Shown here: positions 32,033-49,332 of the stretch, one piece after another | How the letters are laid out: each line of letters starts with the position of its first letter | How positions within the stretch are numbered: position 1 is the stretch's first letter | Origin: a virus | Taxonomy: Duplodnaviria > Caudoviricetes | Reading direction: 5' to 3' (one strand) | IMG/VR virus record: IMGVR_UViG_3300033417_000005 | Coordinates: 8,617 to 72,616 of that record | Length of the DNA stretch: 64,000 bases | The notes under the pieces: generated by a model | The model's input: only the letters and a program-made list of their open reading frames with translations | Databases searched by the model: none | Told to the model about the DNA's origin: nothing | Program-made: the position numbers and the translations under genes

Positions 32033-32236
32033 ATGATTCCAAGCCTTGATGAATTGATATTACGCCTACGCCGGGACGTGCCGCACCGGGACTCTATGTA
32101 TGAACTTGCCCGACAAGTAGCGGGCTGTGAAAGGGGAACGGATGGGCTGCCCGTAAACACCGTGCGCTTTGCGTTCCAGTGTTTGGTTGTGCTGCTTAAA
32201 CACGTTGAAAACGACCCTAAGAATCCGGAAAACTGA
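32033..32236 (+). CDS. Hypothetical protein
   Basis: In operon, 67 aa. Confidence 0.45.
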   Translation: MIPSLDELILRLRRDVPHRDSMYELARQVAGCERGTDGLPVNTVRFAFQCLVVLLKHVENDPKNPEN

Positions 32237-32237
32237 C

Positions 32238-33942: not shown

Positions 33943-33968
33943 AAATAGCCCGGCAACTCCACCGGGCT
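33942..33968 (-). terminator. Intrinsic terminator between convergent genes
   Basis: AGCCCGG-N8-CCGGGCT, followed by a T-run on the minus strand. Confidence 0.7.
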
Positions 33969-33991: not shown

Positions 33992-34402
33992 CTACTTGGT
34001 CTTAACGCTCCTTCCTTCCTTAGTCAGAAACAACACCATGCCTCCCTCTTCCATGCTTTCCCGAGCTATCAAGCCTCGGGCTCGTAGGGAAAGACAGGGT
34101 GCTTTTGAGGCGTTGGCCCATACGTCCTCACGGGGGACGCCTCGCGCCGCGCTGAAGGCTTTCTGTTCCTTGAGGTAGGCGAGCACTTCCAGCTCACCAC
34201 TTGTCAGCTCAGCATCTTCGAGCTCGTCGGCTAAAGCGGCCACCCGATCTACACGGGGGAGAGGCTCTTTCACCGGCTGGGGCTTCTTCTTCTTTCCCTT
34301 TTTCTCCGGTACACTTTCACTTACGGGGGCGTTACTGCTCGAAGACTCGCGCTTTCTCCGTACGCGCTTTTTGTCCGTACCTGTTTCAGATCCAGTCGCC
34401 AT
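33992..34402 (-). CDS. Basic winged-helix-like DNA-binding protein, paralog of 48190-48636
   Basis: GAGGAG SD. EVLAYLKEQKAFSAARGVPREDVW...CLSLRARGL. Confidence 0.65.
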   Translation of the reverse strand: MATGSETGTDKKRVRRKRESSSSNAPVSESVPEKKGKKKKPQPVKEPLPRVDRVAALADELEDAELTSGELEVLAYLKEQKAFSAARGVPREDVWANASKAPCLSLRARGLIARESMEEGGMVLFLTKEGRSVKTK

Positions 34403-34464
34403 GATGTGGCTCCTCAAAAAAGAATAGTGGGGTGTTTAGGCTTTAGCAAGCCTTACTAATGGCC

Positions 34465-34493
34465 AGCCTACCAAGGAAGTTGTCACTTTGCAA
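34465..34493 (-). promoter_or_regulatory. Sigma70-type early promoter
   Basis: TTGCAA-N17-TAGGCT, same family as 43116 and 45005. Confidence 0.65.
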
Positions 34494-34541
34494 GGGGTAA
34501 AATGCCAAAAAAGAAAAACTTTTTAGCGAAGGAGATTTCCC

Positions 34542-35090
34542 GTGATTTCAAGGATCTTTGTGGACCTGGACGACGTACTGGTGGACTTTCGGGGAGGCGC
34601 AATTCGGCTGCATGGGTGGGATCCGGCGGATTGCCGACCCGAAATGTGGGATATGTGTGAGTCGAGAGGAGTAACACAAGAAGATTTTTGGAAACCTATT
34701 GATGAAGCCGGAGAAGACTTTTGGTACTTGCTGCAACCCCATCCTTGGATACACGAAGTCATAGAACTGGTGGAAAGGCACGTGGGTGAGGAGTGGTACA
34801 TAGTCACCTCGCCGAGCAGGCACGTTAGCTCTTACGTTGGCAAGCTAAAATGGGTCAAGGCGTGGTTTGGCGCACAGTTTGACAGGATGATTCCAATGAC
34901 GCATAAACACCTGCTGGCGGATTATGACAGAGTGCTAATCGACGACAGCCCGGATAACATTCTGGAATTTAATAATGCCGGAGGAATTGGAATTTTGTTT
35001 CCAAACGTCGGCAACAGTCTGCATGAACAGGCGCACAGTCCGATGGACCACGTTGAGGAAATCTTAACGCGGATAATGCAACAGGAGTAA
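34542..35090 (+). CDS. HAD-family 5'(3')-deoxyribonucleotidase (NT5C-like)
   Basis: FVDLDDVLVDF, IVTSP, VLIDDSPDN. Confidence 0.85.
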   Translation: MISRIFVDLDDVLVDFRGGAIRLHGWDPADCRPEMWDMCESRGVTQEDFWKPIDEAGEDFWYLLQPHPWIHEVIELVERHVGEEWYIVTSPSRHVSSYVGKLKWVKAWFGAQFDRMIPMTHKHLLADYDRVLIDDSPDNILEFNNAGGIGILFPNVGNSLHEQAHSPMDHVEEILTRIMQQE

Positions 35091-35096
35091 ATTAAA

Positions 35097-36284
35097 ATGG
35101 AACTCGTTTTTAAAGACGTAAACGATGCGTTTGCCGTGCTGGTTGAAATGGTGTTGAAAAACCAGATAGGAACCACGAAAACCACGAGCCGAGCGGGCGA
35201 CGTTATTGCCATCAACGAGCCGATGCTGATCACGTATGAAAATCCTTGCCATCGGGTGCTGTTCAACCCCTTGCGCGACTGTAACTGTTTCTTCCAGTTG
35301 TACGAAGCCCTTTGGATGCTGGCCGGTCGTAACGACGTATCACCTCTGGCGTACTACAACCGGAGAATGACTGAGTTTAGTGACGACGGCAAAACCCTCA
35401 ACGGTGCGTATGGATATCGATGGAGAACTAAGCCGAGAATGCCTTGGACCGACCTGTACGGTGCTAGTCCTGCAAAATTCGCGGAAGTTCATTGCGGTCC
35501 GGTTCGGCGAGTTGACCAGCTAGATATCTTAGTCGACCACCTGAAGAAAACTCCCAACAGCCGACGTGCGGTTCTCCAAATGTGGGACGTGGAGGACGAC
35601 CTTTTGAAAATAGATGAATCGAAGGACGTGAGTTGTAATCTCTCAGTCATGTTCAGCCTGAGGCAAGGAAGGTGTGAAGTCTGTGACGATTACCGAGGCC
35701 CGGATCAGGACTGTCCCGCATGCAACAGCGAGTCCCCCACGTTCTTGGACATGACGGTTACGAACCGCAGCAACGACATGATTTGGGGAATGCTAGGTGC
35801 TAACGTGGTACACTTTAGTTTCCTTCTTGAATACATAGCGGCGCGGCTGGGGGCGAGCGTTGGCCGGTATCACCAGTTCACCAACAACCTTCACGTCTAT
35901 ACGAGTAACTGGCTGCCTCGTAAGTGGCTGAGCGTGTACGGTCAGTATCGCACGATGTACAGTCCGCCCAATACGCGGTACGAAGACCTTGCTTCGCTCG
36001 TGCCCCTCGTTGTAGACCCGGAACGGTTTGATCGTGAACTGCCTGAGTTTGTGGAAAGGCATAGTAAGGACGCGACCGGTGTTGCTTACAAACTCAACAG
36101 TGAACCGTTCTTGCAAAACGTGGCACAGCCTCTGTGTACCGCGTTCCATTACCACAAGCGTCGTCAGTATGCGGATGCCATGAGTGTAGTTCAGGAAATC
36201 CTAGCGGACGATTGGCGGATCGTTGCTACGGATTGGATCCGGAAACGGCGCTCGAAGTATGAGAGCAAAGGTAATAATGCCTAG
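35097..36284 (+). CDS. Thymidylate synthase homolog, probable dUMP hydroxymethylase
   Basis: SRRAVLQMW, catalytic SCN, RSNDMIWG...N (Asn implies dUMP specificity), NNLHVY. Context of aGPT-Pplase and GT genes. Confidence 0.8.
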   Translation: MELVFKDVNDAFAVLVEMVLKNQIGTTKTTSRAGDVIAINEPMLITYENPCHRVLFNPLRDCNCFFQLYEALWMLAGRNDVSPLAYYNRRMTEFSDDGKTLNGAYGYRWRTKPRMPWTDLYGASPAKFAEVHCGPVRRVDQLDILVDHLKKTPNSRRAVLQMWDVEDDLLKIDESKDVSCNLSVMFSLRQGRCEVCDDYRGPDQDCPACNSESPTFLDMTVTNRSNDMIWGMLGANVVHFSFLLEYIAARLGASVGRYHQFTNNLHVYTSNWLPRKWLSVYGQYRTMYSPPNTRYEDLASLVPLVVDPERFDRELPEFVERHSKDATGVAYKLNSEPFLQNVAQPLCTAFHYHKRRQYADAMSVVQEILADDWRIVATDWIRKRRSKYESKGNNA

Positions 36285-37035
36285 ACTAGTCAAAACTTGT
36301 GAGCTATGTGGAGGGGAGTTTAAGGCTGTAAGAAGAACTAGAAGATTTTGTTCCCGAGAGTGCTCTAGCAGGCGTGCTAGACCTAAGAAGCCTAGACTAG
36401 GCAAAATTTGCGAGTTCTGTGGAGAAAAATACAAAACTCTAAACAGCGATCGAAGATTTTGTTCTCATGAGTGTGCTGGTAGGGTGAACGCTCGCGGTAA
36501 GACTAGAAGACCGCCGACTACACAAGAGATAGAAGAGAAGTTTTGGAGTAGAGCGGCCAAACGAAAGAAGGGGTGTTGGAAGTGGACAGGTGGGAAGAAC
36601 GGAGTAGGCTACGGAATATTTAGGGGCAGGTGCGCGCACCGATTTTCTTACGAACTGCTCGTAGGAGCCATCCCTGAGGGATTGTTTGTCTGCCATACCT
36701 GCGACAACCGGGAATGTGTTAATCCTAAACATCTGTTTGTCGGGACTCAGCAAGACAACATGTCCGATATGCGGGCGAAGGGACGTGGGCATTGTCATCC
36801 GAAGGGGACAGTGTGGGGGATGAGTAAGATGGTCCAAAAGAATCCAGAATTGGTACAAGGAGAGAGAAATGGAAGGCATAAGCTGACGGAAGACGACGTT
36901 AGAGAAATTAGAAAGAGATTTAGGCAGTACGCTTATAGAAGGAGTAATGCTAAGCAGTTGGCTAGGGAATTTGGTGTTTGTAAAAACGCGATTTATCAGA
37001 TTATAAGAAAGGCAGCATGGGGTCATGTCAAATAA
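36277..37035 (+). CDS. Free-standing HNH homing endonuclease
   Basis: Two CxxC...RRFCSxEC zinc repeats, AHRFSY...VCHTCDNRECVNPKHL...N, C-terminal HTH. Confidence 0.85.
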   Translation: MPRLVKTCELCGGEFKAVRRTRRFCSRECSSRRARPKKPRLGKICEFCGEKYKTLNSDRRFCSHECAGRVNARGKTRRPPTTQEIEEKFWSRAAKRKKGCWKWTGGKNGVGYGIFRGRCAHRFSYELLVGAIPEGLFVCHTCDNRECVNPKHLFVGTQQDNMSDMRAKGRGHCHPKGTVWGMSKMVQKNPELVQGERNGRHKLTEDDVREIRKRFRQYAYRRSNAKQLAREFGVCKNAIYQIIRKAAWGHVK

Positions 37036-37576
37036 GCAATATGCGCCGGTAAAGACAAAGCGTGACTTCGTAAGGCGCTATCAAAATCACGAATTCGGCA
37101 ACCGCGCCCCTACTTGGGATACGATAGAAGAGTTTAAGAAAAGCGATTGCAAGGGACTGGTGCATATCCGAAACCGTAATGCGGGCGGGATTACTTTTTA
37201 CGACTTAACTAGAGAGGAAGCCATACGGCGGTGGAGTATTCTTGAGCCGAAAGAATTTTATATTTCTTTGATGGCCCCCACGAAAAAGACAATTCTTCAG
37301 GGAGAGTTGACTATCTCGGATTCCGAAGGTTTAACAGGACTGGTTACCACGGTTGCCAAGCCAATGCGAATTGCTCTAGCGGAGAAGGCTACGCAGGTGC
37401 GGGGTGTTTTTGTGAATGCTTTGCTAAGGACAATGCTCTGTCCGAACTCCTATGACTGGACAATGACACTGCTCGACCGCTATCCAGGTCACGTGATCGA
37501 ATTCACTACGTTCTCTTGCGACTGGGGTACTCTGCCCGGATTCAACACGGTGTGGTGGGAAGTGAGAGACTTTTAG
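37025..37576 (+). CDS. Hypothetical protein (possibly degenerate ATP-grasp-like)
   Basis: C-terminal VIEF...G...NTVWWEVR. Fold guess is weak. Confidence 0.45.
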   Translation: MSNKQYAPVKTKRDFVRRYQNHEFGNRAPTWDTIEEFKKSDCKGLVHIRNRNAGGITFYDLTREEAIRRWSILEPKEFYISLMAPTKKTILQGELTISDSEGLTGLVTTVAKPMRIALAEKATQVRGVFVNALLRTMLCPNSYDWTMTLLDRYPGHVIEFTTFSCDWGTLPGFNTVWWEVRDF

Positions 37577-37593
37577 TCTAACCGGAGAGGAAG

Positions 37594-37845
37594 ATGAACA
37601 TTGAAAAGAAAAAGCTGTTTGATCCAGTTTATCAGGAGATTGAATTGAAATCAAGAAAGATGGCGAGGGAAATTCGCTGCCTGTGCCCGGAGTGCAAGAC
37701 GGTCGTAAATGATCAAATTGTGAAGAATCTAGCGGCTGCTGAATTGAGCGGCACTGATTTGTTAGGACAATGTCCCGCTTGTTTGGCGAGCTTTACGCTG
37801 CGGGCGACTATTAAATGCAGAAAAACCTCAAGAGTGGATTATTGA
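37594..37845 (+). CDS. Zinc-ribbon protein
   Basis: CPEC...CPAC. Confidence 0.6.
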   Translation: MNIEKKKLFDPVYQEIELKSRKMAREIRCLCPECKTVVNDQIVKNLAAAELSGTDLLGQCPACLASFTLRATIKCRKTSRVDY

Positions 37846-37848
37846 TTG

Positions 37849-37888
37849 TTTCGGTCCATTTCGGTCCATTTCGGTCGGTTTCGGTCGG
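37849..37888 (+). repeat. 4 x 10-bp tandem TTTCGGTC(CA/GG)
   Basis: Seen directly. The same decamer recurs at 47218-47970. Confidence 0.85.
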
Positions 37889-37968
37889 TATTGGTGTGAC
37901 GAGTGGCCCGAACTCGTGGAGTATGCGAACGTGGTTGACGCCGATTGACAAATTAAAAGGAGCGTAAC

Positions 37969-38256
37969 GTGGCAGAAGACCGCATTAAAAATACCGAAGA
38001 TGCGATGGCGACTATCGAAGACGCGATGGCGACTATCGAAGACGCGATGGCGATTCTTGACGGCATAGTGAAGGTTTTTCCGTCGATTGAAAACCGCTTG
38101 GCCGCATCGGAGTGGGCAATTGGAATACTCAAAGCAGAAATGGTTGACGTTACGTCACAAGTTGTGCTTTCGATGGGCCGGATAACCGATATCGATAGGA
38201 CGCATCAAATTATCGCGCAGCAGCTCCGTCTTGTGGCGGATTCGTTGGAACAATGA
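37969..38256 (+). CDS. Coiled-coil hypothetical protein with 3 x 21-bp internal repeat (EDAMATI)
   Basis: AAGGAG SD. Repeats at 37996-38058. Confidence 0.6.
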   Translation: MAEDRIKNTEDAMATIEDAMATIEDAMAILDGIVKVFPSIENRLAASEWAIGILKAEMVDVTSQVVLSMGRITDIDRTHQIIAQQLRLVADSLEQ

Positions 38257-38278
38257 ACGTCAGTGATCTTTGCAATCA

Positions 38279-38610
38279 GGTTTAAGGGCCGTAGGTGCGT
38301 GCTAGCGCTAGGGGGCCTCAGTGGCCCTTAGCCGTACACACCGGGCTAGGGCAGTGTTACCTGCCCCCACAAGCAAGCGCAGCGCTGTAACGCCCCTAGC
38401 GTAGGGCAGGGCGTAAATGGGGCCGCCTCAGTGGCCCTCAGCCGTACGCGCCTAGGGGCAGGCGTGGTATTACTGCCCCTTAGCAAACGTGCGTTAGGGC
38501 GCAAATGAGGGGCCGTGAGGGGCAAGCACCTTGCGCAGCAATTGTTACGCCCTTTGGCGCATAAAAACACCCCCACGGGCACTACTACATAAGGGGGTAT
38601 ATTAACGGTG
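38279..38610. other. GA/TC-depleted intergenic island between convergent gene blocks
   Basis: Only 5 GA/TC in about 330 bp, all in CCTCA/TGAGG context. Confidence 0.85.
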
Positions 38611-38874
38611 TCAGATAATGTTCTCTTCTACAAACTCAACAAAGCCTAGCCGTTGGGCGATCTTTCCCAGGTCGAAGTGATCCTTGTGCCGGTCCCAAAA
38701 CCCACGGCAACAAAGAGCCTTGGAGTGATGGCAAATACGCCAGCCGTTGAAGTGTCCTTTCATGAGTGGATTAGCGATCTGTTTCTCCAAGGCTTGTAGG
38801 TCTAGAGGGGAATCTGCACGGTAGATGCAGGTGGCGCACTGTTTAGCTTGAACTTTCATAGATTTCTGTTTCAT
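38611..38874 (-). CDS. Cys/His-rich hypothetical early protein
   Basis: CATC...ICH...CRG. Coupled to the upstream gene. Confidence 0.6.
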   Translation of the reverse strand: MKQKSMKVQAKQCATCIYRADSPLDLQALEKQIANPLMKGHFNGWRICHHSKALCCRGFWDRHKDHFDLGKIAQRLGFVEFVEENII

Positions 38875-39065
38875 CCAATAGCCTTGCTGGCGCGTACGTG
38901 TTCTTCTGGATCCAATGATCGCAGGTGCCGAATGCGTTGGGAAAAATACTCTCCCGATTCATCTTGGAAGATCGGGTCGCCGACAGGGGCGAATCTCCAC
39001 TTGTAGAGTAGTTGCTCGTACGACATTGCGTCAATATACATCTTCAGTTCGTCAGTCAGTTTCAT
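38871..39065 (-). CDS. Hypothetical early protein
   Basis: Operon coupling. Confidence 0.6.
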   Translation of the reverse strand: MKLTDELKMYIDAMSYEQLLYKWRFAPVGDPIFQDESGEYFSQRIRHLRSLDPEEHVRASKAIG

Positions 39066-39354
39066 TGGTCGAGTCCTCGCGTAGTGGCATGGGAAAGAAG
39101 GATACTGATGCCGTTGGCGTAAAACCCCACTCTTCTTTCCAGGCTATGAGCTCTTCTTCGGAATTCATTACTCTTGCCCCATGCAGTCCGCTGTTAAGTC
39201 GTCCCGCTTGCCAATCAGCGTGTTTCGCGGGACCGAATATAATAATCACGTGGTCGTCGAATTTTGTCTTTCCTCGTTCCACTTCCTTCCATCCAAAGCC
39301 ATAGTAGTCTTGGCATGCTTCCGGGTGACGGGTAATAATTGTGATCCATGTCAT
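39052..39354 (-). CDS. Hypothetical early protein
   Basis: AAGGAG SD before ATG 39354. Confidence 0.6.
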   Translation of the reverse strand: MTWITIITRHPEACQDYYGFGWKEVERGKTKFDDHVIIIFGPAKHADWQAGRLNSGLHGARVMNSEEELIAWKEEWGFTPTASVSFFPMPLREDSTNETD

Positions 39355-39373
39355 GGTTTGAAACTCCTTGTCT

Positions 39374-39607
39374 TTAAGCGGATTCTTCTTGGAAGGAGAA
39401 CAGTACACGTTTTGTAATGGCGCAATAATTCCTGGGTTCCCTCGTTTCGGAAATCAGATCGCTGATTACCTCCATAGCTTGCCAAGGATGGGAGATGGGT
39501 TTGGTGATGAGGCGGTAACTAAGTCCGTTCATCGATTCTCGTCGAGCTACAGCGTATTGCTTTTCACTGATCTGCACGATAATGAGTGGTTGGAGTACAT
39601 TGTTCAT
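39374..39607 (-). CDS. Hypothetical early protein
   Basis: Fills the gap in the minus-strand operon. Confidence 0.5.
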   Translation of the reverse strand: MNNVLQPLIIVQISEKQYAVARRESMNGLSYRLITKPISHPWQAMEVISDLISETREPRNYCAITKRVLFSFQEESA

Positions 39608-39782
39608 AGCTAAATACTCTTAGGGTGGTGATTAGGACGTGACAAGCTAAAGCAGGACGTGTGCACTATGACGTTACAATTCGAAGACTCATGCTTCGTT
39701 AGGAAATGGCCGGTTTTAATGGGACCGGCCGAACCCCAAGCTGACAGCCCTACGAGGCGTCCTGCCTTGGCTTGATGACCCC

Positions 39783-40031
39783 TTAGGGGGCGTCCTTGCT
39801 GCCGACCACGGTTAGGATGACGTTGGCCTGCGCCTTTACGGGGACGTCACCTACCATGACGACGAACTTGTCGTTGGTGAACCAGCCGAAAGAACCAGAG
39901 CTGAATTCCTTGGGGCTGGCAATGGCCTCTTTACCACTGATTGAGAGCAGCAGCGGCTTGGCCTGTTCGGCAAACTCCGCATGGGTAAGGGGGCATTTGT
40001 TCTCCTTCTTCACTTCACTTTTCTTTGCCAT
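39783..40031 (-). CDS. Small conserved protein resembling a family recalled from Planctomycetes
   Basis: CPLT...AKPL...KEFSSGSFGW...TVVGSK. GGAG SD. Recognition from memory, not searched. Confidence 0.6.
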   Translation of the reverse strand: MAKKSEVKKENKCPLTHAEFAEQAKPLLLSISGKEAIASPKEFSSGSFGWFTNDKFVVMVGDVPVKAQANVILTVVGSKDAP

Positions 40032-40081
40032 GTTATGGCTCCTTCTAAAGGGAGGTTAGGGGTGTACTGCGTTATTGTACC

Positions 40082-40342
40082 TTAGTACCTAGTGATGAGA
40101 TAAATGGTGATTGTGGGCACCAAGAGTATGAGGGCCGCCCAGAATACAAAACCCACGATCAGGCACGCAATATCGGCACGTCGTGAGGCTCGCTTCCGCA
40201 CCAGCTGGCGATACTCTTCGGTTATCTCGCCAACAATGGCCTTCTGCTCGGCAACGTACTTCTCGAACTCGGCGCTGGTTATCCGAGGGCCTTGCACGGG
40301 GGGAGGTGTTACGGTCGTGGACGTTACAATTCGAGGACTCAT
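40082..40342 (-). CDS. Membrane protein with C-terminal TM helix
   Basis: AAGGAG SD; hydrophobic C-terminus. Confidence 0.6.
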   Translation of the reverse strand: MSPRIVTSTTVTPPPVQGPRITSAEFEKYVAEQKAIVGEITEEYRQLVRKRASRRADIACLIVGFVFWAALILLVPTITIYLITRY

Positions 40343-40492
40343 GGCGTTACTCCTTCGTTAAGGGCTTTGGAACAGGCAAGGAAGAACAAGAACAAATGGT
40401 ATCCTAACCATAGCATGAGGACGGCTAGGGTAAGATTTGCACCTGCGCCGATTAACTGGAGCATGACCTCAAGAAGGTTGGGTTCCTCGTGT

Positions 40493-40864
40493 TTACTTTC
40501 CATCTTTCTTCTCCGATACTACTTTAGGGTGATTGCCCGACCTGTCTTGAAACGCATAGAACCTGCGGGCTTGCCTGGCTCTTGCGAAGTGCTTCGTTAC
40601 TCTTTTTCCGTTTTGGCTGTATTCCACCGTTACCGCCGGAGCGCGGGTGCTGATGGGGAGGCGTGGAGTTCCACGAGGCCATCCTGTGAGTTTGCGCTTG
40701 GCATAAGCGAGGACGCTCCGCCGCTCGATTTGCCAGCACTCCATACCTAGTTCGTCCACCCAGACGAGCTCCGCTTGAATGTGGCCCTGCTTAATGAGCC
40801 ACCGTACGTGACGGGGGTGGCTGTTGAGTAAGCGGGCGGCCATGACTGCGGTAATCGTTTTCAC
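40493..40864 (-). CDS. Excisionase/MerR-like HTH protein
   Basis: GTG start with GGAG SD. TAVMAARLLNSHPRHVRWLIKQGHI...WQI. Confidence 0.6.
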   Translation of the reverse strand: MKTITAVMAARLLNSHPRHVRWLIKQGHIQAELVWVDELGMECWQIERRSVLAYAKRKLTGWPRGTPRLPISTRAPAVTVEYSQNGKRVTKHFARARQARRFYAFQDRSGNHPKVVSEKKDGK

Positions 40865-41205
40865 GTGACTTCTCCTTTCTGCGAAGCAATCTTTAGCTTT
40901 TCTTGAATGGGATATACGACGCCTCGTATTTTCAGTTCGAGCACGGCGTCGAGTGGAATGCTGCGGTACGCCTGTTTTTGTACGTCCCACACGGTAAGCA
41001 GGTTGTGCTCTTCAGGGTTGTAGGCCAGCCCTTTTCCTTGCGCAGCATTGTCACGTCCTTTGAGGTCCTTGGCCACCCCCAAACGGCATACCATGCGCCG
41101 AGGCTGCCCGTCAGTCCGCTTGATAAACAGGCAGCTGAATATCGTGGCTCCTGCTTTGTTGACAATCAGCCGTTTGGCTTTGGAGGTTTTACTTTTCTTC
41201 TTCAT
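40861..41205 (-). CDS. SH3-like beta-barrel phage protein (WYL-like)
   Basis: FIKRTDGQPRRM...LLTVWDVQKQAYRSIPL. Confidence 0.65.
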   Translation of the reverse strand: MKKKSKTSKAKRLIVNKAGATIFSCLFIKRTDGQPRRMVCRLGVAKDLKGRDNAAQGKGLAYNPEEHNLLTVWDVQKQAYRSIPLDAVLELKIRGVVYPIQEKLKIASQKGEVT

Positions 41206-41518
41206 TGATCATCTCCCTAGTTATCCACCTGCCAAGCCAGCCTTTTCGACCATCGAATAGGTCACCTAGAAATTCACTGAGTTCCTGTAACGGCGGATCC
41301 TGTTTCACCAGCGCTTCGAGTTCACTATGCTCTCCCGCGGCAAGAGTACAGATTGCCTCCTTGTCGGGCAGCCGGTCCGCCAACTTACTGAGGCGAGTGG
41401 TAAGTAGCTCAGGCAAGGCATGCACGATGGAATGGTAAGGGTTTACGCCACGCACGAGGTCGCCGTAGTTGTCCTCGCATAGCTCTTCTAGCAGCAGCAG
41501 CAGATTTTCACTAATCAT
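41189..41518 (-). CDS. Hypothetical protein, paralog of 41780-42109
   Basis: About 50% identity to the upstream paralog by eye. Confidence 0.7.
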   Translation of the reverse strand: MISENLLLLLEELCEDNYGDLVRGVNPYHSIVHALPELLTTRLSKLADRLPDKEAICTLAAGEHSELEALVKQDPPLQELSEFLGDLFDGRKGWLGRWITREMINEEEK

Positions 41519-41796
41519 TATTTCTCTCCTTTTTCTAAAACGCGGTATAGGTCCTCCGCCCATTGGTCGTAGGTTTGGTTCCTTGGTACGCCGATCCAGA
41601 TCCATAGGGTGCGCATTGTTTGGGCAACCGCCTTCGTGCTTAGGTGGTCGTCTACAACAGCGGTTACGATGCGTTCTAAAATCTCTTCTTTGGGGGTACG
41701 CATACCAGCTTTGCTCATTTGTTGCAGCACCGTGCGCCTTACGCGACTGCGTGAGGACGTTACAACGCTGCGCGAGGTTTTACTTTTCTTCTTCAT
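41518..41796 (-). CDS. Hypothetical protein
   Basis: Shares its MKKKSKTS start with 40861-41205. Confidence 0.6.
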   Translation of the reverse strand: MKKKSKTSRSVVTSSRSRVRRTVLQQMSKAGMRTPKEEILERIVTAVVDDHLSTKAVAQTMRTLWIWIGVPRNQTYDQWAEDLYRVLEKGEK

Positions 41797-42109
41797 TGAG
41801 AATCTCCGGGGTTATCCACTTGCTAAGCCAGCCTTCCTCTCCATCGAATAGATCATTTAGAAAGTCATTGAGTTGCCGCAATGGCGGATCCTGCTTAATC
41901 ACCTCTTCCTGTTCGCTATACTCTCCCCAGGCGAGGGTTAATACCGTGGCCGTGTCTGGCATCCGGTCCGCCAACGTACTGAGATGCGTGGTAAGTGGAT
42001 CAGGCAAGGCGTACATGACGAAAAAGTAAGGATTTACGTGAGGCGAGAGGTCGCCCCATTGTTCTTTGTATAACTCTTCTATTATCAGTTGCAGGTTTTT
42101 ACTAATCAT
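41780..42109 (-). CDS. Hypothetical protein, paralog of 41189-41518
   Basis: VNPY...ALP...LTT.LS.LADR...KQDPPL...LFDG..GWL..WIT shared. Confidence 0.7.
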   Translation of the reverse strand: MISKNLQLIIEELYKEQWGDLSPHVNPYFFVMYALPDPLTTHLSTLADRMPDTATVLTLAWGEYSEQEEVIKQDPPLRQLNDFLNDLFDGEEGWLSKWITPEILNEEEK

Positions 42110-42315
42110 GATTGGGTTTCCAGTCTGTGGCAAATGTGCTCTACTATAGACGCTAGCCGTTCTAGTGTCTCGTCGTCAGTATACTCTTGCATCACCTTGG
42201 CTATACTGTGTACACTCAGCCCGTCCTCGATGCCGTTTGCTATGGGCTTGCAAGGTATTGTCACACCAGCTCGCTGTAGTTCTTCTCGTATCACTGTATA
42301 CGTTCTAATATCCAT
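42106..42315 (-). CDS. Hypothetical protein
   Basis: Operon coupling. C-terminal HRLET is shared with the upstream gene. Confidence 0.55.
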   Translation of the reverse strand: MDIRTYTVIREELQRAGVTIPCKPIANGIEDGLSVHSIAKVMQEYTDDETLERLASIVEHICHRLETQS

Positions 42316-42712
42316 TTGAGGTCTCCAGTCGGTGGTAAATGCGTTCAGCCAATTCCGTGCAAGTTATTTCTAGCGGCTGGCCGATTATGCCGCTCCACTT
42401 TTGAATAAAGCACCCCACGTCGCAGGCCGATAAATGGTCTTCAATTAACTGTGCCACTTCTTCTATTGGGTTGGGGTACCGGTGGTCTAACCCGGCAAGT
42501 TTGAACTCTTTCTTGACTGCTTTTCTAATTTTCCTGTTCATCTTTACTCTCTCTCTTTCTAAGGTGCGTTCTTCGGGACGTGACATGACTTCGTCAGGAT
42601 GGCGCTCCAAGTAACAAGCGTGGCAATCCTGTTCGTGCCGTTTGCCTTCCGCGTAGGTGCTAAAGGGCTCGCCACAGGCGGCCACATAAACGTCGGTGTA
42701 ATTCCAGCTCAT
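42305..42712 (-). CDS. Hypothetical protein
   Basis: AGGAG SD; N-terminal CxxH...C motif. Confidence 0.6.
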   Translation of the reverse strand: MSWNYTDVYVAACGEPFSTYAEGKRHEQDCHACYLERHPDEVMSRPEERTLERERVKMNRKIRKAVKKEFKLAGLDHRYPNPIEEVAQLIEDHLSACDVGCFIQKWSGIIGQPLEITCTELAERIYHRLETSNGY

Positions 42713-42747
42713 AATTGTGTCTCCTGTAAAGGGTGTTGTGGAGGGGG

Positions 42748-43035
42748 CTAGGTAACGGGGTCGTCAGTTCCTTCGTAGCACCAATATCCTTTGTCGTCGT
42801 CGCCCATGGTGTAAAGATATAGGCGTTCGGCAACGGTGTCGTAGACGTGTACGTTGTCGTAGTCGTACCATGTTTTGTCGTCCATCATACGGTTTATGTG
42901 GGCGTCACACTCACTCAGCGTATCGTACATGGCGAGTACCTCGCGATTAGGGCCGAGGTGCCCGATTACCGCAAAGCGTTTTGCTTTGTCAACATTGGCG
43001 GGGCTGGTGTTAAACCTAATCATTTTCTTCGACAT
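42748..43035 (-). CDS. Acidic hypothetical protein, paralog of 43186-43449
   Basis: KRFAV.G...EVLAMY.TLSECDA.I...YDNV..YD...WCYE.T..PV. Confidence 0.7.
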   Translation of the reverse strand: MSKKMIRFNTSPANVDKAKRFAVIGHLGPNREVLAMYDTLSECDAHINRMMDDKTWYDYDNVHVYDTVAERLYLYTMGDDDKGYWCYEGTDDPVT

Positions 43036-43115
43036 TTCATTTCTCCTTTGTGCGTGGGGGTGTTTTGGGGCGGCCTACACTCCGTCCCCGTGGGGGCGCT
43101 TTTGGCCCTACATAT

Positions 43116-43144
43116 AGCCTAGCACAGCGGCTAAAGGAATGCAA
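43116..43144 (-). promoter_or_regulatory. Sigma70-type early promoter
   Basis: TTGCAT-N17-TAGGCT with extended -10 TG. Confidence 0.7.
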
Positions 43145-43185
43145 GGGGTGAAATGCAGTTTTTTGCATGCGATAAATGGGGGTAA

Positions 43186-43449
43186 TTATTCGATAACGGG
43201 TTCGTTGGTGTCTTCGTAGCACCACCCTCCTCCCCCCTTATCATAGAGGCATAGATGTTCGGTAAGGCAGTCGTATAGGTTTACATTGTCGTATTCCTGG
43301 ATTTCACCGTCCTCACACATGCCCTCTATATAGGCGTCACACTCACTTAGAGTTTCGTACATGGCGAGTACCTCGCAATCAGTGTCGATGTAGCCGAGGA
43401 CTGCAAAGCGTTTTGTGGGTTCCACGGTTTCGCCTTCAAGCCTGATCAT
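43186..43449 (-). CDS. Acidic hypothetical protein, paralog of 42748-43035
   Basis: Shares the motif set listed for 42748-43035. AAGGA SD. Confidence 0.7.
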   Translation of the reverse strand: MIRLEGETVEPTKRFAVLGYIDTDCEVLAMYETLSECDAYIEGMCEDGEIQEYDNVNLYDCLTEHLCLYDKGGGGWCYEDTNEPVIE

Positions 43450-43476
43450 TAGGCTGTCCTTTCTTTAAGTTGGATG

Positions 43477-44112
43477 TTACAGCGCTGCGCTTGGTACGTT
43501 TCGTAAAGCAGCCTCAAATACTTGATAGAGATATTCTTTGACGTCGTTGCGGTTTGGCCCGCTGATCTTTAACTCAAAGTCATTGGTCAGGCTGGGGCGC
43601 ACCGTGCAGACATGGAAAGTCCATCCGTCGTACATGCCCACTTCATTCGTATGATGATAGCCGAAGCGCAGTACGAGTTTGTTGGCGTTGCTGCGTTCCA
43701 GGTCGAAAACAACCTCGTCGTCGACACCACTGCCATGAGGCAGCCACTCAGCAACTAGCTCTTTGATTTCTTGTTCATGCTTCTCCTTCCATTCAAGGTT
43801 GTTGGACTCGACACAGGTAAGGCGCGCCTGGCAAAGGATGGCCAGTGCTTGGTACAGGGGGCCTGTCTTCTTGGGGGAAGCGTAAAAGAGTTTGTTTCCA
43901 TTCATAATTCGTGCAACAACGTGCCAGTTGTATTCAATGGAGGGAATGGTGACGTCAATAGGTGCAATCGTCGCGAATGTGTTTTTTCTTCCGGTGACTC
44001 TTGCGGGATATTCAATTCCACCGATAGTAAGCCAGCATTCTTGTCCTGCAAACTTTTTCGCAAGATTTCTGGTTTCGTAAACCGTTGGCCGCAGTCTTGT
44101 GTTCCAGCTCAT
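43477..44112 (-). CDS. Hypothetical early protein
   Basis: LPHGSGVD...YHHTNEVGMYDGWT...ISGPNRNDVKEYL. Confidence 0.65.
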   Translation of the reverse strand: MSWNTRLRPTVYETRNLAKKFAGQECWLTIGGIEYPARVTGRKNTFATIAPIDVTIPSIEYNWHVVARIMNGNKLFYASPKKTGPLYQALAILCQARLTCVESNNLEWKEKHEQEIKELVAEWLPHGSGVDDEVVFDLERSNANKLVLRFGYHHTNEVGMYDGWTFHVCTVRPSLTNDFELKISGPNRNDVKEYLYQVFEAALRNVPSAAL

Positions 44113-44414
44113 TGTTCTTTCCTTTCAAGAGAGACCTCAATAACTATTCGATCGATACATACGGGCCAGCGCTGCGATTGCCCTGCTTTCCACGAGTTTT
44201 CGAGTTGTAACCCCCACCTTCGTATCAACGGCGGCACGAGTCTCCAAGCCGACCTTTCCACGCCTTCGTGCCCCCAAGCGATAAAGTTTCCTCGGTGAAT
44301 TAAAACACCCTCGGAGGTGGAGGCGGTGGCGACATAGTCAAGCTGACGCGGTCCTTCGACAAATATGTCCTCGGGCCACGAATCTGGATCGATATAATTA
44401 ACTTTCACTTCCAT
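44109..44414 (-). CDS. Hypothetical early protein
   Basis: Operon coupling. Confidence 0.55.
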   Translation of the reverse strand: MEVKVNYIDPDSWPEDIFVEGPRQLDYVATASTSEGVLIHRGNFIAWGHEGVERSAWRLVPPLIRRWGLQLENSWKAGQSQRWPVCIDRIVIEVSLERKEQ

Positions 44415-44424
44415 GGGGGGTTCC

Positions 44425-44643
44425 TTAATAGTTGACGTTCACGGTTTTCGTGAGCTTGGCATAGCGAATGCTGTACCGTTCGCCTTTGTTGGACTTCCGG
44501 GCATCTTCGATAGAGGTGTACCGGCCGTCGTCCGGGTGGAAGGCGCAAGCAATTATGAAGTCCTTGTTTTCTTGCCAATCCTTCTTTACGGCGGCGGCGT
44601 TCGTGTAATCACGGTTGTAGGCGGGTATTAAGGTCACGTACAT
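44425..44643 (-). CDS. Conserved small phage protein (PAY.RDY...KDF)
   Basis: AAGGAG SD. Confidence 0.65.
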   Translation of the reverse strand: MYVTLIPAYNRDYTNAAAVKKDWQENKDFIIACAFHPDDGRYTSIEDARKSNKGERYSIRYAKLTKTVNVNY

Positions 44644-44668
44644 GATTTCATTTCTCCTTTGTGTTAAA

Positions 44669-44902
44669 TCAGTCTTCGTGGCGGCCCCAGGCATTTTCGT
44701 ATTCCGCTAGGGTGTCCTCCAGTCTTACAAACAGCTCTTCGACCTCCGTAGTATCCATTCGTACGAGCAGGTCCTTGGCGCGCGTGCCTGCGATAGGCCA
44801 GCGTTCCGATGGAAGCTGCTGCTTGATCATGGCTGTTAATAGGTCGTCGATCGCCACGGCCATGGGGGCGGTTTGTGCGAATTTACCAGGGTTTGTACTC
44901 AT
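44669..44902 (-). CDS. Hypothetical early protein
   Basis: AAGGAG SD; first gene after the 45005 promoter. Confidence 0.6.
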   Translation of the reverse strand: MSTNPGKFAQTAPMAVAIDDLLTAMIKQQLPSERWPIAGTRAKDLLVRMDTTEVEELFVRLEDTLAEYENAWGRHED

Positions 44903-45004
44903 TTCATTTCTCCTTGTGGGTGTTACAACGCTTCGCGAGGTGTTGTGTACTCCGTCCCCGTGGGTGCCACATTGTGTGGCGGCCAAGGCACGGGGCCAAC
45001 CTAT

Positions 45005-45033
45005 AGCCTAGCATACCGGCTAAAGGGATACAA
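45005..45033 (-). promoter_or_regulatory. Sigma70-type early promoter
   Basis: TTGTAT-N17-TAGGCT with extended -10 TG. Flanks are near-identical to those of the 43116 promoter. Confidence 0.7.
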
Positions 45034-45138
45034 GGGGTAAAATGGCGGTATATAATGGTATTGGGTGTAAAACAAAATTGGATGCGGACGTAAGGTAAAT
45101 AGTGATAAAACCCTGAAACAAGATTGGAGAATTGTAGA

Positions 45139-45396
45139 ATGCGAGACATCCAGCCTAATGTGGAAGAAGACCAAATTTTGGAGCGGTTGCGTAACGTGGA
45201 AGAAGACCGAATGATGAAATGGTTTGCGTACGTGCATCTGCCGGATAATCTCCGGATCATTAGCAGCCCGTTCCACGATCTAGCTCATGATCTTTGCAGG
45301 AGGATCGATCCTGGCCCGGAACGTACCGTCATGCTGCGGAAACTGTTGGAGTCGAAAGACGCGGCTGTCCGGGCCGTGGTGCATCCGGGAGGATAA
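45139..45396 (+). CDS. Conserved small phage protein
   Basis: FAYVHLP...SSPFHDLA...GPERTVMLRKLLESKDAAVRA. Confidence 0.7.
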   Translation: MRDIQPNVEEDQILERLRNVEEDRMMKWFAYVHLPDNLRIISSPFHDLAHDLCRRIDPGPERTVMLRKLLESKDAAVRAVVHPGG

Positions 45397-45439
45397 GAGC
45401 GAGTCTTCTAATTGTTTTTCATGATCTACGGAGGAAGTC

Positions 45440-45709
45440 ATGGGTCGTATTAAATGGCACGGTTCGTGTGATGCCAAGCGTCAAAGTCCCCTTGCTAAAC
45501 ACATTGGATCGCAGCTGCTTAGGGCTCGAGAAAAACATCAATTGACAATTCGGGAAACTGCGAAGAGAGTGGGCATATCCAACGCATTTGTCTGCCAAAT
45601 CGAAAATGGCCAAAGCGTCCCAGGCGCCGAGATTCTTTGGAAGCTGTCGAGAACGTTTGACGTTCCGGTAACTTATTGGTTTCGTGGATTCACGGACGAT
45701 AATGGCTAA
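45440..45709 (+). CDS. XRE-family HTH transcriptional regulator
   Basis: LLRAREKHQLTIRETAKRVGISNAFVCQIENG...P. Confidence 0.85.
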   Translation: MGRIKWHGSCDAKRQSPLAKHIGSQLLRAREKHQLTIRETAKRVGISNAFVCQIENGQSVPGAEILWKLSRTFDVPVTYWFRGFTDDNG

Positions 45710-45727
45710 TTACCCCGGAGGCTGATA

Positions 45728-46045
45728 ATGGTCCGCGAAACTATGGTGTGGGAACCAGAATATCCACTGCCGAAATTGACAGCCGAAGACCGTCAAGCCT
45801 TGAATGAAATTGATATCAACAAAATAATTGCCAGCGTGGTGGCGGAGATGCCGCCCGAGGACGTTACAACGCTTCGCGAACAACAAAAACCATGGAAGGT
45901 GACCGATACGTTCGGTAACACAATTCAGCGATACAAAACTAAATCGGATGCATTAGCGTCGTGCATTGCTAGAAATCTACTCGCGAGGGAGATGGGATTG
46001 TGGATGAGGTATCGCGTTGCGAGAGATCAAGGGTGGGACGAGTGA
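45728..46045 (+). CDS. Hypothetical protein
   Basis: GGAGG SD. Confidence 0.55.
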   Translation: MVRETMVWEPEYPLPKLTAEDRQALNEIDINKIIASVVAEMPPEDVTTLREQQKPWKVTDTFGNTIQRYKTKSDALASCIARNLLAREMGLWMRYRVARDQGWDE

Positions 46046-46094
46046 TCTAAATAATGCTGCGCGACGCGATTTTTTGTCGTAAAAAGGTGCAATA

Positions 46095-46445
46095 ATGACA
46101 GACTCAGAAAACTTAAGGAGTTTTAAAATGACTGATTTGCAACGAGGTTTTCGCGACGCGATTCACGTTCCGTTCATAATCGTTTCTTGCGACAGCGAAT
46201 TGCAGCCCGGCGACAAAATTTCTTTGCGGCACGATGATAAGTGCGTGCTTTGGCAAGGATCTAACTACGAACCTGATTGGCACGGCGTGGCTGAACCGTT
46301 TCGGCTCACGAAAATACCTGCGGGCGAATTGTTTGCCTGCTTTATCCGCAAGGACTGTTTTTCAGGACTGACGCACAACTTTAAAATCGAGGTCAACGAC
46401 CACGGAGGGACCGACACGTGCCACAAAGTTTGCGACATCTTTTAA
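46095..46445 (+). CDS. Hypothetical protein
   Basis: DAIHVP...GVAEPF...ITH-like segment; SD present. Confidence 0.55.
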   Translation: MTDSENLRSFKMTDLQRGFRDAIHVPFIIVSCDSELQPGDKISLRHDDKCVLWQGSNYEPDWHGVAEPFRLTKIPAGELFACFIRKDCFSGLTHNFKIEVNDHGGTDTCHKVCDIF

Positions 46446-46460
46446 AAAGGAGTCAGGAAA

Positions 46461-46772
46461 ATGAACAAACTCCCAACCGGAAAGCTGACTCCTAGATCGA
46501 ATGAATTTGTCAGCGGAATCCGTATGACCGGAGCATTCGGCCAGCCCGACGGATTCGGTTCTGTACTGCGGTGCATAGTCACGAAAGATGGCAGCGCGCA
46601 ATTTACGATGTATATTCGGAACGAACACCGAGACGGTGAACAAGGGATCGATTTTTGGACGGTTGCTCTGGACAACGAGCAAAGGGGCATTTTGGCGCGA
46701 TGGCTGAGCACAACGGGGCACGATCCAACGTTGGTGGAATATATTCACGACGAGGAATCTGTCAAGGGATGA
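46461..46772 (+). CDS. Hypothetical protein
   Basis: AGGAG SD. Confidence 0.5.
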   Translation: MNKLPTGKLTPRSNEFVSGIRMTGAFGQPDGFGSVLRCIVTKDGSAQFTMYIRNEHRDGEQGIDFWTVALDNEQRGILARWLSTTGHDPTLVEYIHDEESVKG

Positions 46773-46949
46773 TCACGATCTTACGGGTGGCGCGACGAGA
46801 TTTTTTGGCGCAAAAAGTTGAATATGTGACTCATTGACTCATGGAAAAACCAAAACTTACTTCGCGAGAAATGCTTCGTCGTGACAACGCTCCACGTGGA
46901 AGACGGATTTTAAAAAATCGTGGTGCCCCACCCGCACACCACCCTTCTT

Positions 46950-47200
46950 AGGATAAAGAAAAGAATATTCTTTGTAAAGTATAGAGAATCTAATCTTAAG
47001 CATAAGTTCTTATTCTCTCTAGAAAGAGAAAGAAAAGAAGAGATACGATTTTATTCAGTAAAAAGAAGACTTCTTCTCTTAGAAAGATCAAAGAATCTTT
47101 GTAAAAAGTAAGACTTCTTCTTTTAGAAAGAAAAGAAATTTGAGTTCTTCTTTTGAAAAGAAAAAAGTTTCCGTCTTGGGTGTGCGCGTACGCGCGAGGA
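46950..47200. repeat. AT-rich AAGA/TCTT low-complexity tract ending in GTGCGCGTACGCGCG
   Basis: AAGACTTCTTC-T(C/T)TTAGAAAG repeated. Non-coding. Confidence 0.75.
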
Positions 47201-47217
47201 ATCCGCTTTTGATTTCG

Positions 47218-47460
47218 TTTCGGTCCATGAACTTTGATTTCCGTTCGTTCCTAGATTCTTATCTTCGATTCAGTTTACCTGGATCCTAGATTCTTATCTT
47301 CGATTCAGTTTATCTGGATCCATCTTTTCGGTTCTTATGTTTTGATTTCCATTCGTTCCAAAGTTTCGGTCCAAAGTTTTTGATTTCGTTTCGTTCTTAG
47401 CCTTGGAATTTGGATCATCCATCTTTTCGGTTCTTGAGTTTTGATTTCCATTCGTTCGCG
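47218..47460 (+). repeat. Nested direct repeats (two 37-bp copies, two 38-bp copies) with TTTCGGTCCA
   Basis: CCTAGATTCTTATCTTCGATTCAGTTTA(C/T)CTGGATCC x2; CATCTTTTCGGTTCTT...TTTTGATTTCCATTCGTTC x2. Confidence 0.8.
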
Positions 47461-47520
47461 TTCCAAGATGTGGAAAGAATTTGAACTTCCACTTTTGCGA
47501 AACGTGCCCGCAACGATTTG

Positions 47521-47565
47521 GATTGGATTGGATTGGATTGGATTGGATTGGATTGGATTGGATTG
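47521..47565 (+). repeat. (GATTG)9 microsatellite
   Basis: Seen directly. Confidence 0.95.
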
Positions 47566-47930
47566 GAAATGGAAGATGAATGAAAACCCTTGGCCGGAAA
47601 ACGATTTGTGAATGCAAGCGCAGCGCTGTAACGTCCAAGAAACGGGGTACTTCTAAATACCTCAAAAGTGGCAAATAATCTACCAGTTTGTTAAGCTAGG
47701 CAAACCTAGGCTGAGGGGCCCAAATTTGCGACCTCACGCACTTTGCCGGGTTTTGGCATAAAACTAGCCACTTGCCATTTTAGGACGTCAGATCCTAAAT
47801 TTGGGTCCCTGAGGACAAATTAAAAAGCAAACCGCATTGCCAATTGCCAAACCTGAATTTTCAAAACGCTCTGTACAGCGTACCCTTCGCCTCGTAGCGA
47901 CATAGCCCCATTGCCCCGTATGTCGGCTCG

Positions 47931-47975
47931 TTTCGGTCCAATTCTTTTCGGTCCAATTCTTTTCGGTCCAATTCT
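47931..47975 (+). repeat. 3 x 15-bp tandem TTTCGGTCCAATTCT
   Basis: Seen directly. Confidence 0.9.
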
Positions 47976-48139
47976 TCATACTTGGCTTTCTCATCCACGC
48001 CCCTGCACATACTTCCATTTTTCAGCTACACTCTTTATACCACTTCTAGGGGGTTAGGTACCCCCACCTCAGGGGGGCCACTACTAGGGGGTATGCCACC
48101 CCCACTAGGGTAGTGTACGTTTGTACAAAGCAGGTGCAT

Positions 48140-48166
48140 AAAAAACCCGGCCCGCCTTGGCCGGGT
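48140..48166 (-). terminator. Intrinsic terminator of the 48190-48636 gene
   Basis: ACCCGGCC-N6-GGCCGGGT followed by T6 on the minus strand. Confidence 0.75.
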
Positions 48167-48189
48167 AGTGTACCAACGTACACTAGGGG

Positions 48190-48636
48190 TTAGCTGATTG
48201 TTGGCCCCCAATTAGGCGCCGCGCTTTTGGTGGCAGCACCAGCACCAGCACCAGCACCAGCACCAGCCGTTGCCTTAGGTGCTTTAGCCTTACGCGCGGC
48301 CTTGGCTTTGGGGGCTTTGCCTGTTAGGTACAACCCCATTTGCGGCGTACGGCCAACCACGCCCATGGCCCGCAGCGTTAGGCAAGCTACTTGGCTGGTG
48401 CCCGGTGCCAGCCATACTTGGGTGCGTGTAACCGCCTTGGCCGCGTTAACTGCCCCCTGCGCCTTTAAGTACGCCAACACGGCGGTTTGTGCCGCCAGTA
48501 GCTTGGCACTAGGCTTGGCCGTTAGCGTGCCTACCAAATCCAGCTGCTTGGCCGTAATGCCATTACCCGCCACCGTAGCCGCCGCCTTGCCTACAACCGC
48601 CGTACCCGTACCCTTACTTTGCTTTGCGTTAGCCAT
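48190..48636 (-). CDS. Basic Ala/Lys-rich winged-helix-like protein with almost no acidic residues; paralog of 33992-34402
   Basis: 148 aa with 1 Asp and 0 Glu. AGGGGT SD, its own promoter and terminator, homology to 33992-34402. Confidence 0.75.
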   Translation of the reverse strand: MANAKQSKGTGTAVVGKAAATVAGNGITAKQLDLVGTLTAKPSAKLLAAQTAVLAYLKAQGAVNAAKAVTRTQVWLAPGTSQVACLTLRAMGVVGRTPQMGLYLTGKAPKAKAARKAKAPKATAGAGAGAGAGAATKSAAPNWGPTIS

Positions 48637-48760
48637 TTTGCTAACCCCTATAGCAACGTGTGGTGCATGGCCAACCATAGCCAGCCCACAACAACCACGG
48701 CCAGCCCGCCGTGGCCAGCCCCACACACGGTTGGCCAACACAGCCAACCCACACACATAA

Positions 48761-48788
48761 AGTATAGCCTACCCCGCGGCTAGTGCAA
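48761..48788 (-). promoter_or_regulatory. Early promoter variant
   Basis: TTGCAC-N16-TATACT. Shares TAGGCTATA and TAGCCG with the 43116 and 45005 promoters. Confidence 0.55.
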
Positions 48789-49332
48789 GGGGTACGCACA
48801 AAATTTTACAAAAAAGATTTTGGAAGTTTGGCATAAGGAATGCGTACCATAGTGTACGGCTATACAGTGTACACAATTACATCTAGGTATACAGCTGTGC
48901 ACTACTGTACGGATGTACTTGGATTGGATTTGGCGGTTCGCGGCTGGTGCGGAGAATCGTGGTCTTGCCCCTACCCTACGTCGTGCATTTTTGGATCAAA
49001 ATCTGCCCCTTAGCCACGTCGTGTATTCATGAGTCTTCGAATTGTAACGTCCTAGCGAAGCTATGTTACGTCCTTGGATCAAGATCAGCCCATTTCACTC
49101 ACTCTTTCGTTCACTGAGGGAAAAATTTGCTCCTATTTCGCGAGTCCTTGAAAATCTAGCGAAGCTAGCTCGAGCGAAATGAGGGACCGGTTGTGAGTTG
49201 TTTTTCACTAAAAAATCGCGATCTCGAAAATTTTCTCTCGTACCCGAGGGCTTTTTATAGTGTACGAATGTATACTGTTGTTGAACCGAAGATTCTGTGT
49301 AAAATGGGGGTATTTACGCTCTGGAGCAAGGT

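Follow-up and report, generated by a model that had tools for sequence, protein, structure and literature searches.

A 64,000-nucleotide stretch of phage DNA (Duplodnaviria; Caudoviricetes), referred to here as the window and corresponding to bases 8617-72616 of the 72.6-kb IMG/VR virus record IMGVR_UViG_3300033417_000005, carries two genes for related small proteins on its minus strand. The phage is uncultured and comes from a metagenomic contig. The first gene, copy 1, encodes a protein of ordinary composition and lies among DNA-modification genes. The second, the island copy, encodes a protein almost devoid of acidic residues and lies in a short tract nearly free of the dinucleotides GA and TC:

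33992-34402, minus strand: copy 1, the ordinary paralog, a predicted winged-helix protein of 136 residues from the ATG at 34402, with 5 Asp, 16 Glu and an isoelectric point (pI) of 9.64
48190-48636, minus strand: the island copy, the acid-free paralog, also a predicted winged-helix protein, 148 residues from the ATG at 48636
48070-48815, unstranded: the GA/TC-free island, 746 bp, 2 GA/TC against 97.6 expected

Both open reading frames (ORFs) lie on the strand and at the positions given in the preliminary description of this DNA, and the peptides that it quoted occur in their translations. Its central claim, that the two genes form a paralog pair, is borne out by BLASTP, which finds 27 identities in a 68-residue core (40%, E 4e-13); homology between the proteins is therefore clear. 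Island-type and ordinary sequences also align with shuffle z-scores of 9-25, and the whole 72.6-kb record contains just these two copies. The copy 1 ORF holds 59 GA/TC in 411 bp and has an alternative open start, a TTG at 34417. The island copy contains 1 Asp, no Glu, 15 Lys and 4 Arg, for a pI of 11.05. Gene callers in public collections disagree on its start (146-186 residues); the ATG at 48636, which is preceded by AGGGGT, is used here. A GCTGGT repeat at 48234-48273 encodes a (Gly-Ala)n run in this protein, and three otherwise identical sequences (P0008, P0009 and P0010) are one unit shorter.

The island is genuine. Flanks of equal size hold 95 and 101 GA/TC, and no other dinucleotide pair shows a comparable void anywhere in this genome. 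The tract begins ∼25 bp upstream of the -35 element, continues through a 115-nt leader, the ORF and the terminator, and ends ∼75 bp beyond the terminator; the purge affects GA and TC on both strands. Its two exceptions are at 48539, the sole Asp codon, and 48196, the last Ile codon. Each of the five Ser codons in the ORF is AGY, and the codons CGA, AGA, GGA, CTC, GTC and TTC do not occur. Since G is the last base of 55 codons and A the first base of 44, ∼16 GA would be expected at codon junctions, but there is none. The ban extends to synonymous sites, junctions between codons and non-coding DNA alike, so the constraint acts on DNA and not on protein. Every Asp and Glu codon starts with GA, and the acidic residues are gone from the island copy because GA is banned. 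Judged from these codon and composition patterns, their loss is a by-product of a DNA-level ban on GA/TC, not of selection on the protein, in keeping with the earlier suggestion that the acid-free state follows from a property of the DNA.

A mutational origin by TC-directed deamination was rejected as unlikely, since its expected product, AA/TT, is at a minimum in the island. A forbidden-dipeptide test (Met or Trp followed by a residue with only A-starting allowed codons) did not discriminate, with 0 cases in three acid-free proteins and also 0 in two ordinary ones.

To place the pair in a family, an exhaustive profile search of 1.84 billion representatives was performed. Six members were found; a seventh match, P0006, a 1,437-residue multi-stretch protein (E 2.4e-7), was left out. 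The island-type subfamily comprises the island copy, P0003 (1 Asp, no Glu) and P0004 (no Asp, no Glu), three lysine-rich proteins that share a conserved core and are 53-61% identical to one another. The ordinary subfamily comprises copy 1, P0005 and P0007, which have in common a four-residue acidic insertion in the wing that is missing from the island type. Columns with Asp or Glu in ordinary copies carry Lys, Ala, Thr, Gln, Ser or a gap in island-type copies, so the replacement by Ala, Thr or Gln described earlier is roughly right but incomplete. Likewise, calling the island copy rewritten fits its lack of acidic residues but not a recent event: by sequence comparison the two genes are old paralogs, 31-40% identical, and the acid-free lineage has itself diverged to 53-61%. 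The absence of acidic residues is therefore of long standing and can be reconciled with function, given this divergence and the core that the three phages share. No relatives of the two proteins, or of the small terminase, turned up in searches of viral, metagenome and genome contigs.

AlphaFold2 models of both copies were built on the six-sequence alignment. The copy 1 model contains helices at residues 68-79, 91-97 and 100-108 and strands at 112-116 and 122-126, with a predicted local distance difference test (pLDDT) score of 85-90 in the core. In the island copy these elements follow one another in the same order, with a core pLDDT of 76-80. In both models, a helix-turn-helix is followed by a beta-hairpin wing and the tails are disordered. 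Foldseek matched both copies to winged-helix proteins throughout, with TubR (4asn_A) first in each case (E 1.8e-4 and 8.6e-2), followed by MarR-family and ScpB winged helices. The tails are of low complexity and rich in Lys, Ala and Pro, and resemble linker-histone-like nucleoid proteins by composition only. Both copies are thus predicted to be winged-helix DNA-binding proteins with basic tails, and the models favor the earlier proposal of a basic DNA-binding protein.

No family was assigned to either copy by Pfam (E <= 0.01) or PHROGs. Neither copy could be placed in the MarR family (PF01047/PF12802), PDB sequence-profile matches to MarR proteins having E values of 0.2-0.85, and a protein atlas search with the pair gave sub-threshold leads only. 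A TubZRC type III partition system, in which TubR has the tubulin-like GTPase TubZ as partner, was rejected: PF00091 is absent from the 72.6-kb genome at E <= 0.1, a threshold at which 13 of 14 control genomes match. The pair therefore shares its predicted fold with TubR and MarR-type proteins (4asn_A, 3cjn and others), but differs from them in having no Pfam or PHROG match, in a genome without TubZ, and in its 14-27% identity to the structural matches.

Around copy 1, a plus-strand block encodes, in order, DNA polymerase A, a 5-hydroxymethyl-2'-deoxyuridine (5-hmdU) DNA kinase, two unassigned proteins, a TAGT-like glycosyltransferase and a radical-SAM/SPASM enzyme; copy 1 follows on the minus strand, and then come a 5'-nucleotidase and a thymidylate-synthase homolog. 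The members with coordinates are:

29342-30226, plus strand: 5-hmdU DNA kinase (PF18723, E 4.4e-44, profile positions 4-276 of 281)
32169-32996, plus strand: TAGT-like glycosyltransferase, a cassette member
32965-33942, plus strand: radical-SAM/SPASM enzyme, convergent with copy 1
35097-36284, plus strand: thymidylate-synthase homolog, candidate deoxyuridine monophosphate (dUMP) hydroxymethylase (PF00303, E 1.7e-20; phrog_5131, E 1.2e-89)

In six phage contigs (this one, L023, L024, L025, L028 and L029), a gene of the copy 1 type and the radical-SAM/SPASM gene are arranged convergently. Judged by this gene order, the ordinary copy belongs to a thymidine-hypermodification cassette. The premise that the phage genome is modified also gains from these predicted functions, which are those of a 5-hmdU hypermodification pathway. 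A cytosine route, by C5 methyltransferase, TET/JBP and TAGT, was considered and rejected: PF00145 and PF12851 are absent from the genome, despite the TAGT-like transferase. Since neither a TET/JBP enzyme nor a C5 methyltransferase is encoded, the modified base is most likely a thymine derivative and not a cytosine derivative. In phages with such a pathway, hypermodification of 5-hmdU reportedly takes place on the polymer and is sequence-specific, with motifs stated as unknown (PMC5889632). At restriction-resistant sites of phages M6, ViI and phiW-14, TG and TC are enriched, an effect ascribed to the kinase (PMC6449724).

More than 1000 homologs of the radical-SAM/SPASM protein exist at 50-68% identity, and 80 viral loci and 22 whole records with such a homolog were scanned for all ten dinucleotide pairs. 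GA/TC was the only pair forming islands in the 22 records, clearly in five (G009, G014, G017, G019 and G021) and marginally in two (G024 and G026). A TAGT-like glycosyltransferase homolog is present in 6/6 clear island genomes, this phage included, and in 5/17 others, a comparison not corrected for kinship. The islands of G014, G017, G019 and G021 (loci L123-L140, e.g., G017:19891-20955) code for an unrelated protein, acid-free but non-basic and 175-181 residues long, together with a small membrane peptide ending in AWRHKC.

The fifth record, G009 (locus L025), whose radical-SAM protein is 65% identical to that of this phage, contains a second twin:

L025:16986-17780: the G009 island, adjoining the nucleotidase gene of the modification cluster
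L025:17038-17520, minus strand: the island ORF, no Asp or Glu, 2 GA/TC
L025:11213-11740, minus strand: the ordinary paralog, 61 GA/TC, convergent with the radical-SAM gene

The two G009 proteins are 39% identical over 51 residues (E 1e-4) and share a VRHY-YH motif, and the ordinary copy has homologs at the equivalent position in L023, L024, L028 and L029. Homology between the copies, a DNA-level ban in one and normal GA/TC in the other were found together in this phage and in G009. The pairing of a normal and an acid-free version of a cassette protein, for which the preliminary description had proposed surveying related phages, does therefore recur.

The families of this phage (A) and of G009 and the others (B) are certainly positional equivalents and probably remote homologs: copy 1 and the L023 protein align with z ∼9, and hhalign matches the two profiles over the whole winged helix (E 6.5e-4, probability 28%). 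Each island copy resembles ordinary copies of its own family only; that of G009, for instance, reaches z 6-10 in comparisons with family B, but about -1 with the three island copies of family A. An earlier six-sequence tree was uninformative. In a tree of 11 sequences, the A/B split has support of 96/92 and the island label needs two changes. Island copies formed a single clade in 4% of bootstrap trees, and forcing them together costs 8.4 log-likelihood units (approximately unbiased (AU) test, p 0.046). Because a shared acid-free composition should pull the island copies together, their separation is conservative. By the z-scores, the tree and this marginal AU test, the acid-free twin appears to have arisen independently in two phage lineages.

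Both copies are associated with putative regulatory elements of their own:

34465-34498, minus strand: copy 1 promoter-like element, with ACCCCTTGCA at 34498-34489, -35 TTGCAA, a 17-nt spacer and TAGGCT at 34470-34465
33947-33968, minus strand: copy 1 intrinsic terminator, a 9-bp stem and then a T-run
48761-48793, minus strand: island promoter-like element, sigma-70-like, read from sequence, with ACCCCTTGCA at 48793-48784, -35 TTGCAC, a 16-nt spacer and TATACT at 48766-48761
48139-48166, minus strand: island terminator, a hairpin at 48166-48145 with an 8-bp stem (7 GC pairs) and then T6
48672-48750, minus strand: island 5' leader repeats, four direct repeats of ∼16 nt, GGGCTGGCC-type
48111-48130, 48166-48185, 48850-48869 and 49258-49277, unstranded: palindrome TAGTGTAC-N4-GTACACTA, 4 found against 0.17 expected

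The related promoters and separate terminators of the preliminary description are both recognizable, the former in the ACCCCTTGCA element upstream of each copy (34498 and 48793) and the latter in the hairpins with T-runs at 33968-33947 and 48166-48145. The copy 1 element was read by eye, a consensus scan having missed it. ACCCCTTGCA followed by TAGGCT occurs at 34498, 43149, 45038 and 48793, each time on the minus strand. The promoters at 43149 and 45038 precede two leftward operons of small genes and also lie within GA/TC-poor stretches. The word GGCTGGCC also occurs directly downstream of the copy 1 promoter (34461-34468). Two of the palindromes flank the island terminator on either side; of the others, one precedes the island promoter and one the small terminase gene, and no further copies occur in the window. 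The palindromes are candidate operators, and palindromes and leader repeats alike are candidate binding sites.

The island is enclosed in a 2.5-kb repeat-rich non-coding region (46780-49330) between early-type genes and the small terminase gene (49333), possibly an origin or packaging region. Its repeats include TTGGA in ∼11 copies (47518-47572), a 15-bp unit in three (47928-47976), a 35-bp unit in two (47249-47318) and 41-bp units in four (47210-47457). The repeat flanks around the island are very GA/TC-rich, unlike the island itself. A second GA/TC-poor non-coding stretch, at 38276-38611, has its longest gaps at 110, 94 and 69 bp; it separates the end of the plus-strand block from a minus-strand block, is CTAG-rich and contains repeated GC-rich hairpin-like elements. 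At 45440-45709, an XRE-type helix-turn-helix gene heads a rightward operon divergent from the leftward promoter at 45038, a layout that resembles an immunity-region-like switch. Bases 72417-72616 of the record repeat ∼75-200 with a few mismatches; either the ends overlap imperfectly or a structural gene contains an internal repeat.

The explanation that we favor, with moderate confidence, is that TC is the context of hypermodification and that one copy of the cassette's DNA-binding protein is kept by the phage in a modification-proof form. The sequence 5'-TC-3' would be where the phage turns 5-hmdU into a bulky hypermodified base, and a tract without TC on either strand would escape hypermodification in incoming and progeny DNA alike. 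One full transcription unit, with its candidate operator palindromes, could then stay readable by host RNA polymerase, the protein itself or others that adducts would hinder. This would provide a modification-independent supply of the cassette DNA-binding protein, probably at the start of infection, while the ordinary copy would be expressed from modifiable DNA along with the cassette. A basic DNA-binding protein may tolerate the loss of all acidic residues, which is perhaps why this gene was recodable.

A more specific scenario builds on this, and we put it forward as a tentative one that is more likely wrong than right. The winged-helix protein would make hypermodified DNA usable by serving host RNA polymerase or the modification enzymes as a reader or adaptor, and a fully modified infecting genome would bootstrap it from its sole adduct-free stretch. 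Duplication and recoding would have evolved at least twice, and the banned dinucleotide would reveal the 5'-TC context.

Several observations weigh against the favored explanation. That TC is the modified context here is inferred, for a phage known from a metagenomic contig alone. GA/TC abounds in other presumed early genes of the phage, which means that not all transcription can be blocked by modification. Many cassette-bearing genomes, such as the complete G007, have no island; G001 and G002 (relatives by terminase) and G006 (a relative by kinase), all three with related kinases, lack both a family member and an island for any dinucleotide. The island is thus not required by the hypermodification pathway. 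Nor is the twin a rule: no paralog of the island protein was detectable elsewhere in the genomes of G014, G017, G019 and G021, and the twin is one solution among island phages. The GA/TC-free state of the P0003 and P0004 genes is deduced from protein composition only. The link between families A and B is weak (hhalign) and rests partly on synteny, and the marginal AU test involves a G009 island copy on a long branch.

Among the other explanations, the best survivor, though an unlikely one, is that GA/TC was purged to evade a nuclease or another DNA-acting enzyme, either a host defense or a phage enzyme that destroys unmodified DNA, the twin being the surviving uncuttable copy. T4 endonuclease IV, which is specific for deoxycytidine (dC) and cuts at 5'-TC, is an example of the latter. 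A ban that is symmetric on the strands and includes non-coding DNA is what any reader of TC in double-stranded DNA would impose, and the ban is specific to GA/TC across unrelated genomes. However, islands were found only in surveyed phages with the thymidine-hypermodification cassette, and in two lineages the gene that was recoded is part of that cassette. No nuclease emerged as a candidate, and the rest of the genome would need protection by modification anyway.

We give still less credit to the idea that the island is a cis-acting site (a packaging start, replication origin or nucleation site) kept adduct-free for a terminase or initiator, with the ORF as a passenger and copy 1 compensating for a crippled protein. 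Such a site would fit the location, in a repeat-rich non-coding region that immediately precedes the small terminase gene, and the four flanking palindromes. Yet the limits of the island match a promoter and a terminator, and the G009 island adjoins the nucleotidase gene of the modification cluster (no terminase search was made there). The conserved core of the acid-free protein in three lineages is also at odds with a crippled product, and a passenger model does not predict that one cassette protein should be duplicated and recoded twice.

Selection on the mRNA, in which a transcript without GA and UC evades a toxin-type or RegB-like endoribonuclease, is improbable. The entire transcribed region complies, down to a Shine-Dalgarno sequence of AGGGGT in place of AGGAG, but so does DNA that is not transcribed, ∼60 bp at the promoter and ∼75 bp after the terminator; moreover, the absence of both GA and TC from the same strand is a signature of double-stranded DNA, needless for RNA. 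Finally, selection for an extremely basic, acid-free protein with the DNA pattern as its mere reflection can be given hardly any weight: the three orthologues are indeed acid-free and lysine-rich, but the synonymous choices, the empty codon junctions and the non-coding DNA largely refute it, and islands of other phages encode acid-free proteins that are not basic.

If the favored explanation holds, a tract from which a single dinucleotide is banned on both strands amounts to a genome-encoded prediction of the hypermodification motif, the T in TC. The twin also demonstrates the reach of DNA-level selection, a working protein having been rebuilt without two of the twenty amino acids, apparently twice independently. 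It points to the DNA-binding protein as a previously unrecognized, conserved companion of a widespread cassette. Furthermore, local dinucleotide voids together with acid-free ORFs could serve as a search rule for immediate-early or modification-exempt modules in uncultured phages.

The closest known systems are the thymidine-hypermodifying phages M6 (Pseudomonas), ViI (Salmonella) and phiW-14 (Delftia), which likewise have a thymidylate-synthase homolog and a 5-hmdU DNA kinase adjoining DNA polymerase, and in which modification is partial and sequence-specific (PMC5889632, PMC8989533, PMC6449724). The present phage differs in its downstream enzymes, which are glycosyltransferase-like proteins and a radical-SAM/SPASM enzyme. 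Word searches of these three papers (PMC5889632, PMC8989533, PMC6449724) found no unmodifiable tract, recoded gene or cassette-linked winged-helix protein. Similarly, a full-text literature word search on hypermodified phages, for tracts left unmodified or dinucleotides avoided, found no paper.

Phages are also known to avoid restriction sites and other short motifs, genome-wide and for sites of 4-6 bp. As in that case, selection on DNA words and not on protein shapes codon choice here; unlike it, the ban concerns a dinucleotide, is local to one transcription unit and costs two amino acids, in a genome that is otherwise GA/TC-rich. TF1 of the Bacillus phage SPO1 is reportedly a phage DNA-binding protein that prefers 5-hydroxymethyluracil (5-hmU) DNA. 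Like TF1, the pair would represent a small phage DNA-binding protein tied to a modified-thymine genome, although TF1 has an HU fold in place of the winged helix predicted here and, to our knowledge, is encoded by a single gene that is not recoded. Finally, the pre-early (first-step-transfer) region of T5 and the leading early region of T7 are defined by the order of DNA entry and not by composition; like them, the island would be a small, self-contained unit that acts before the rest of the genome is usable.

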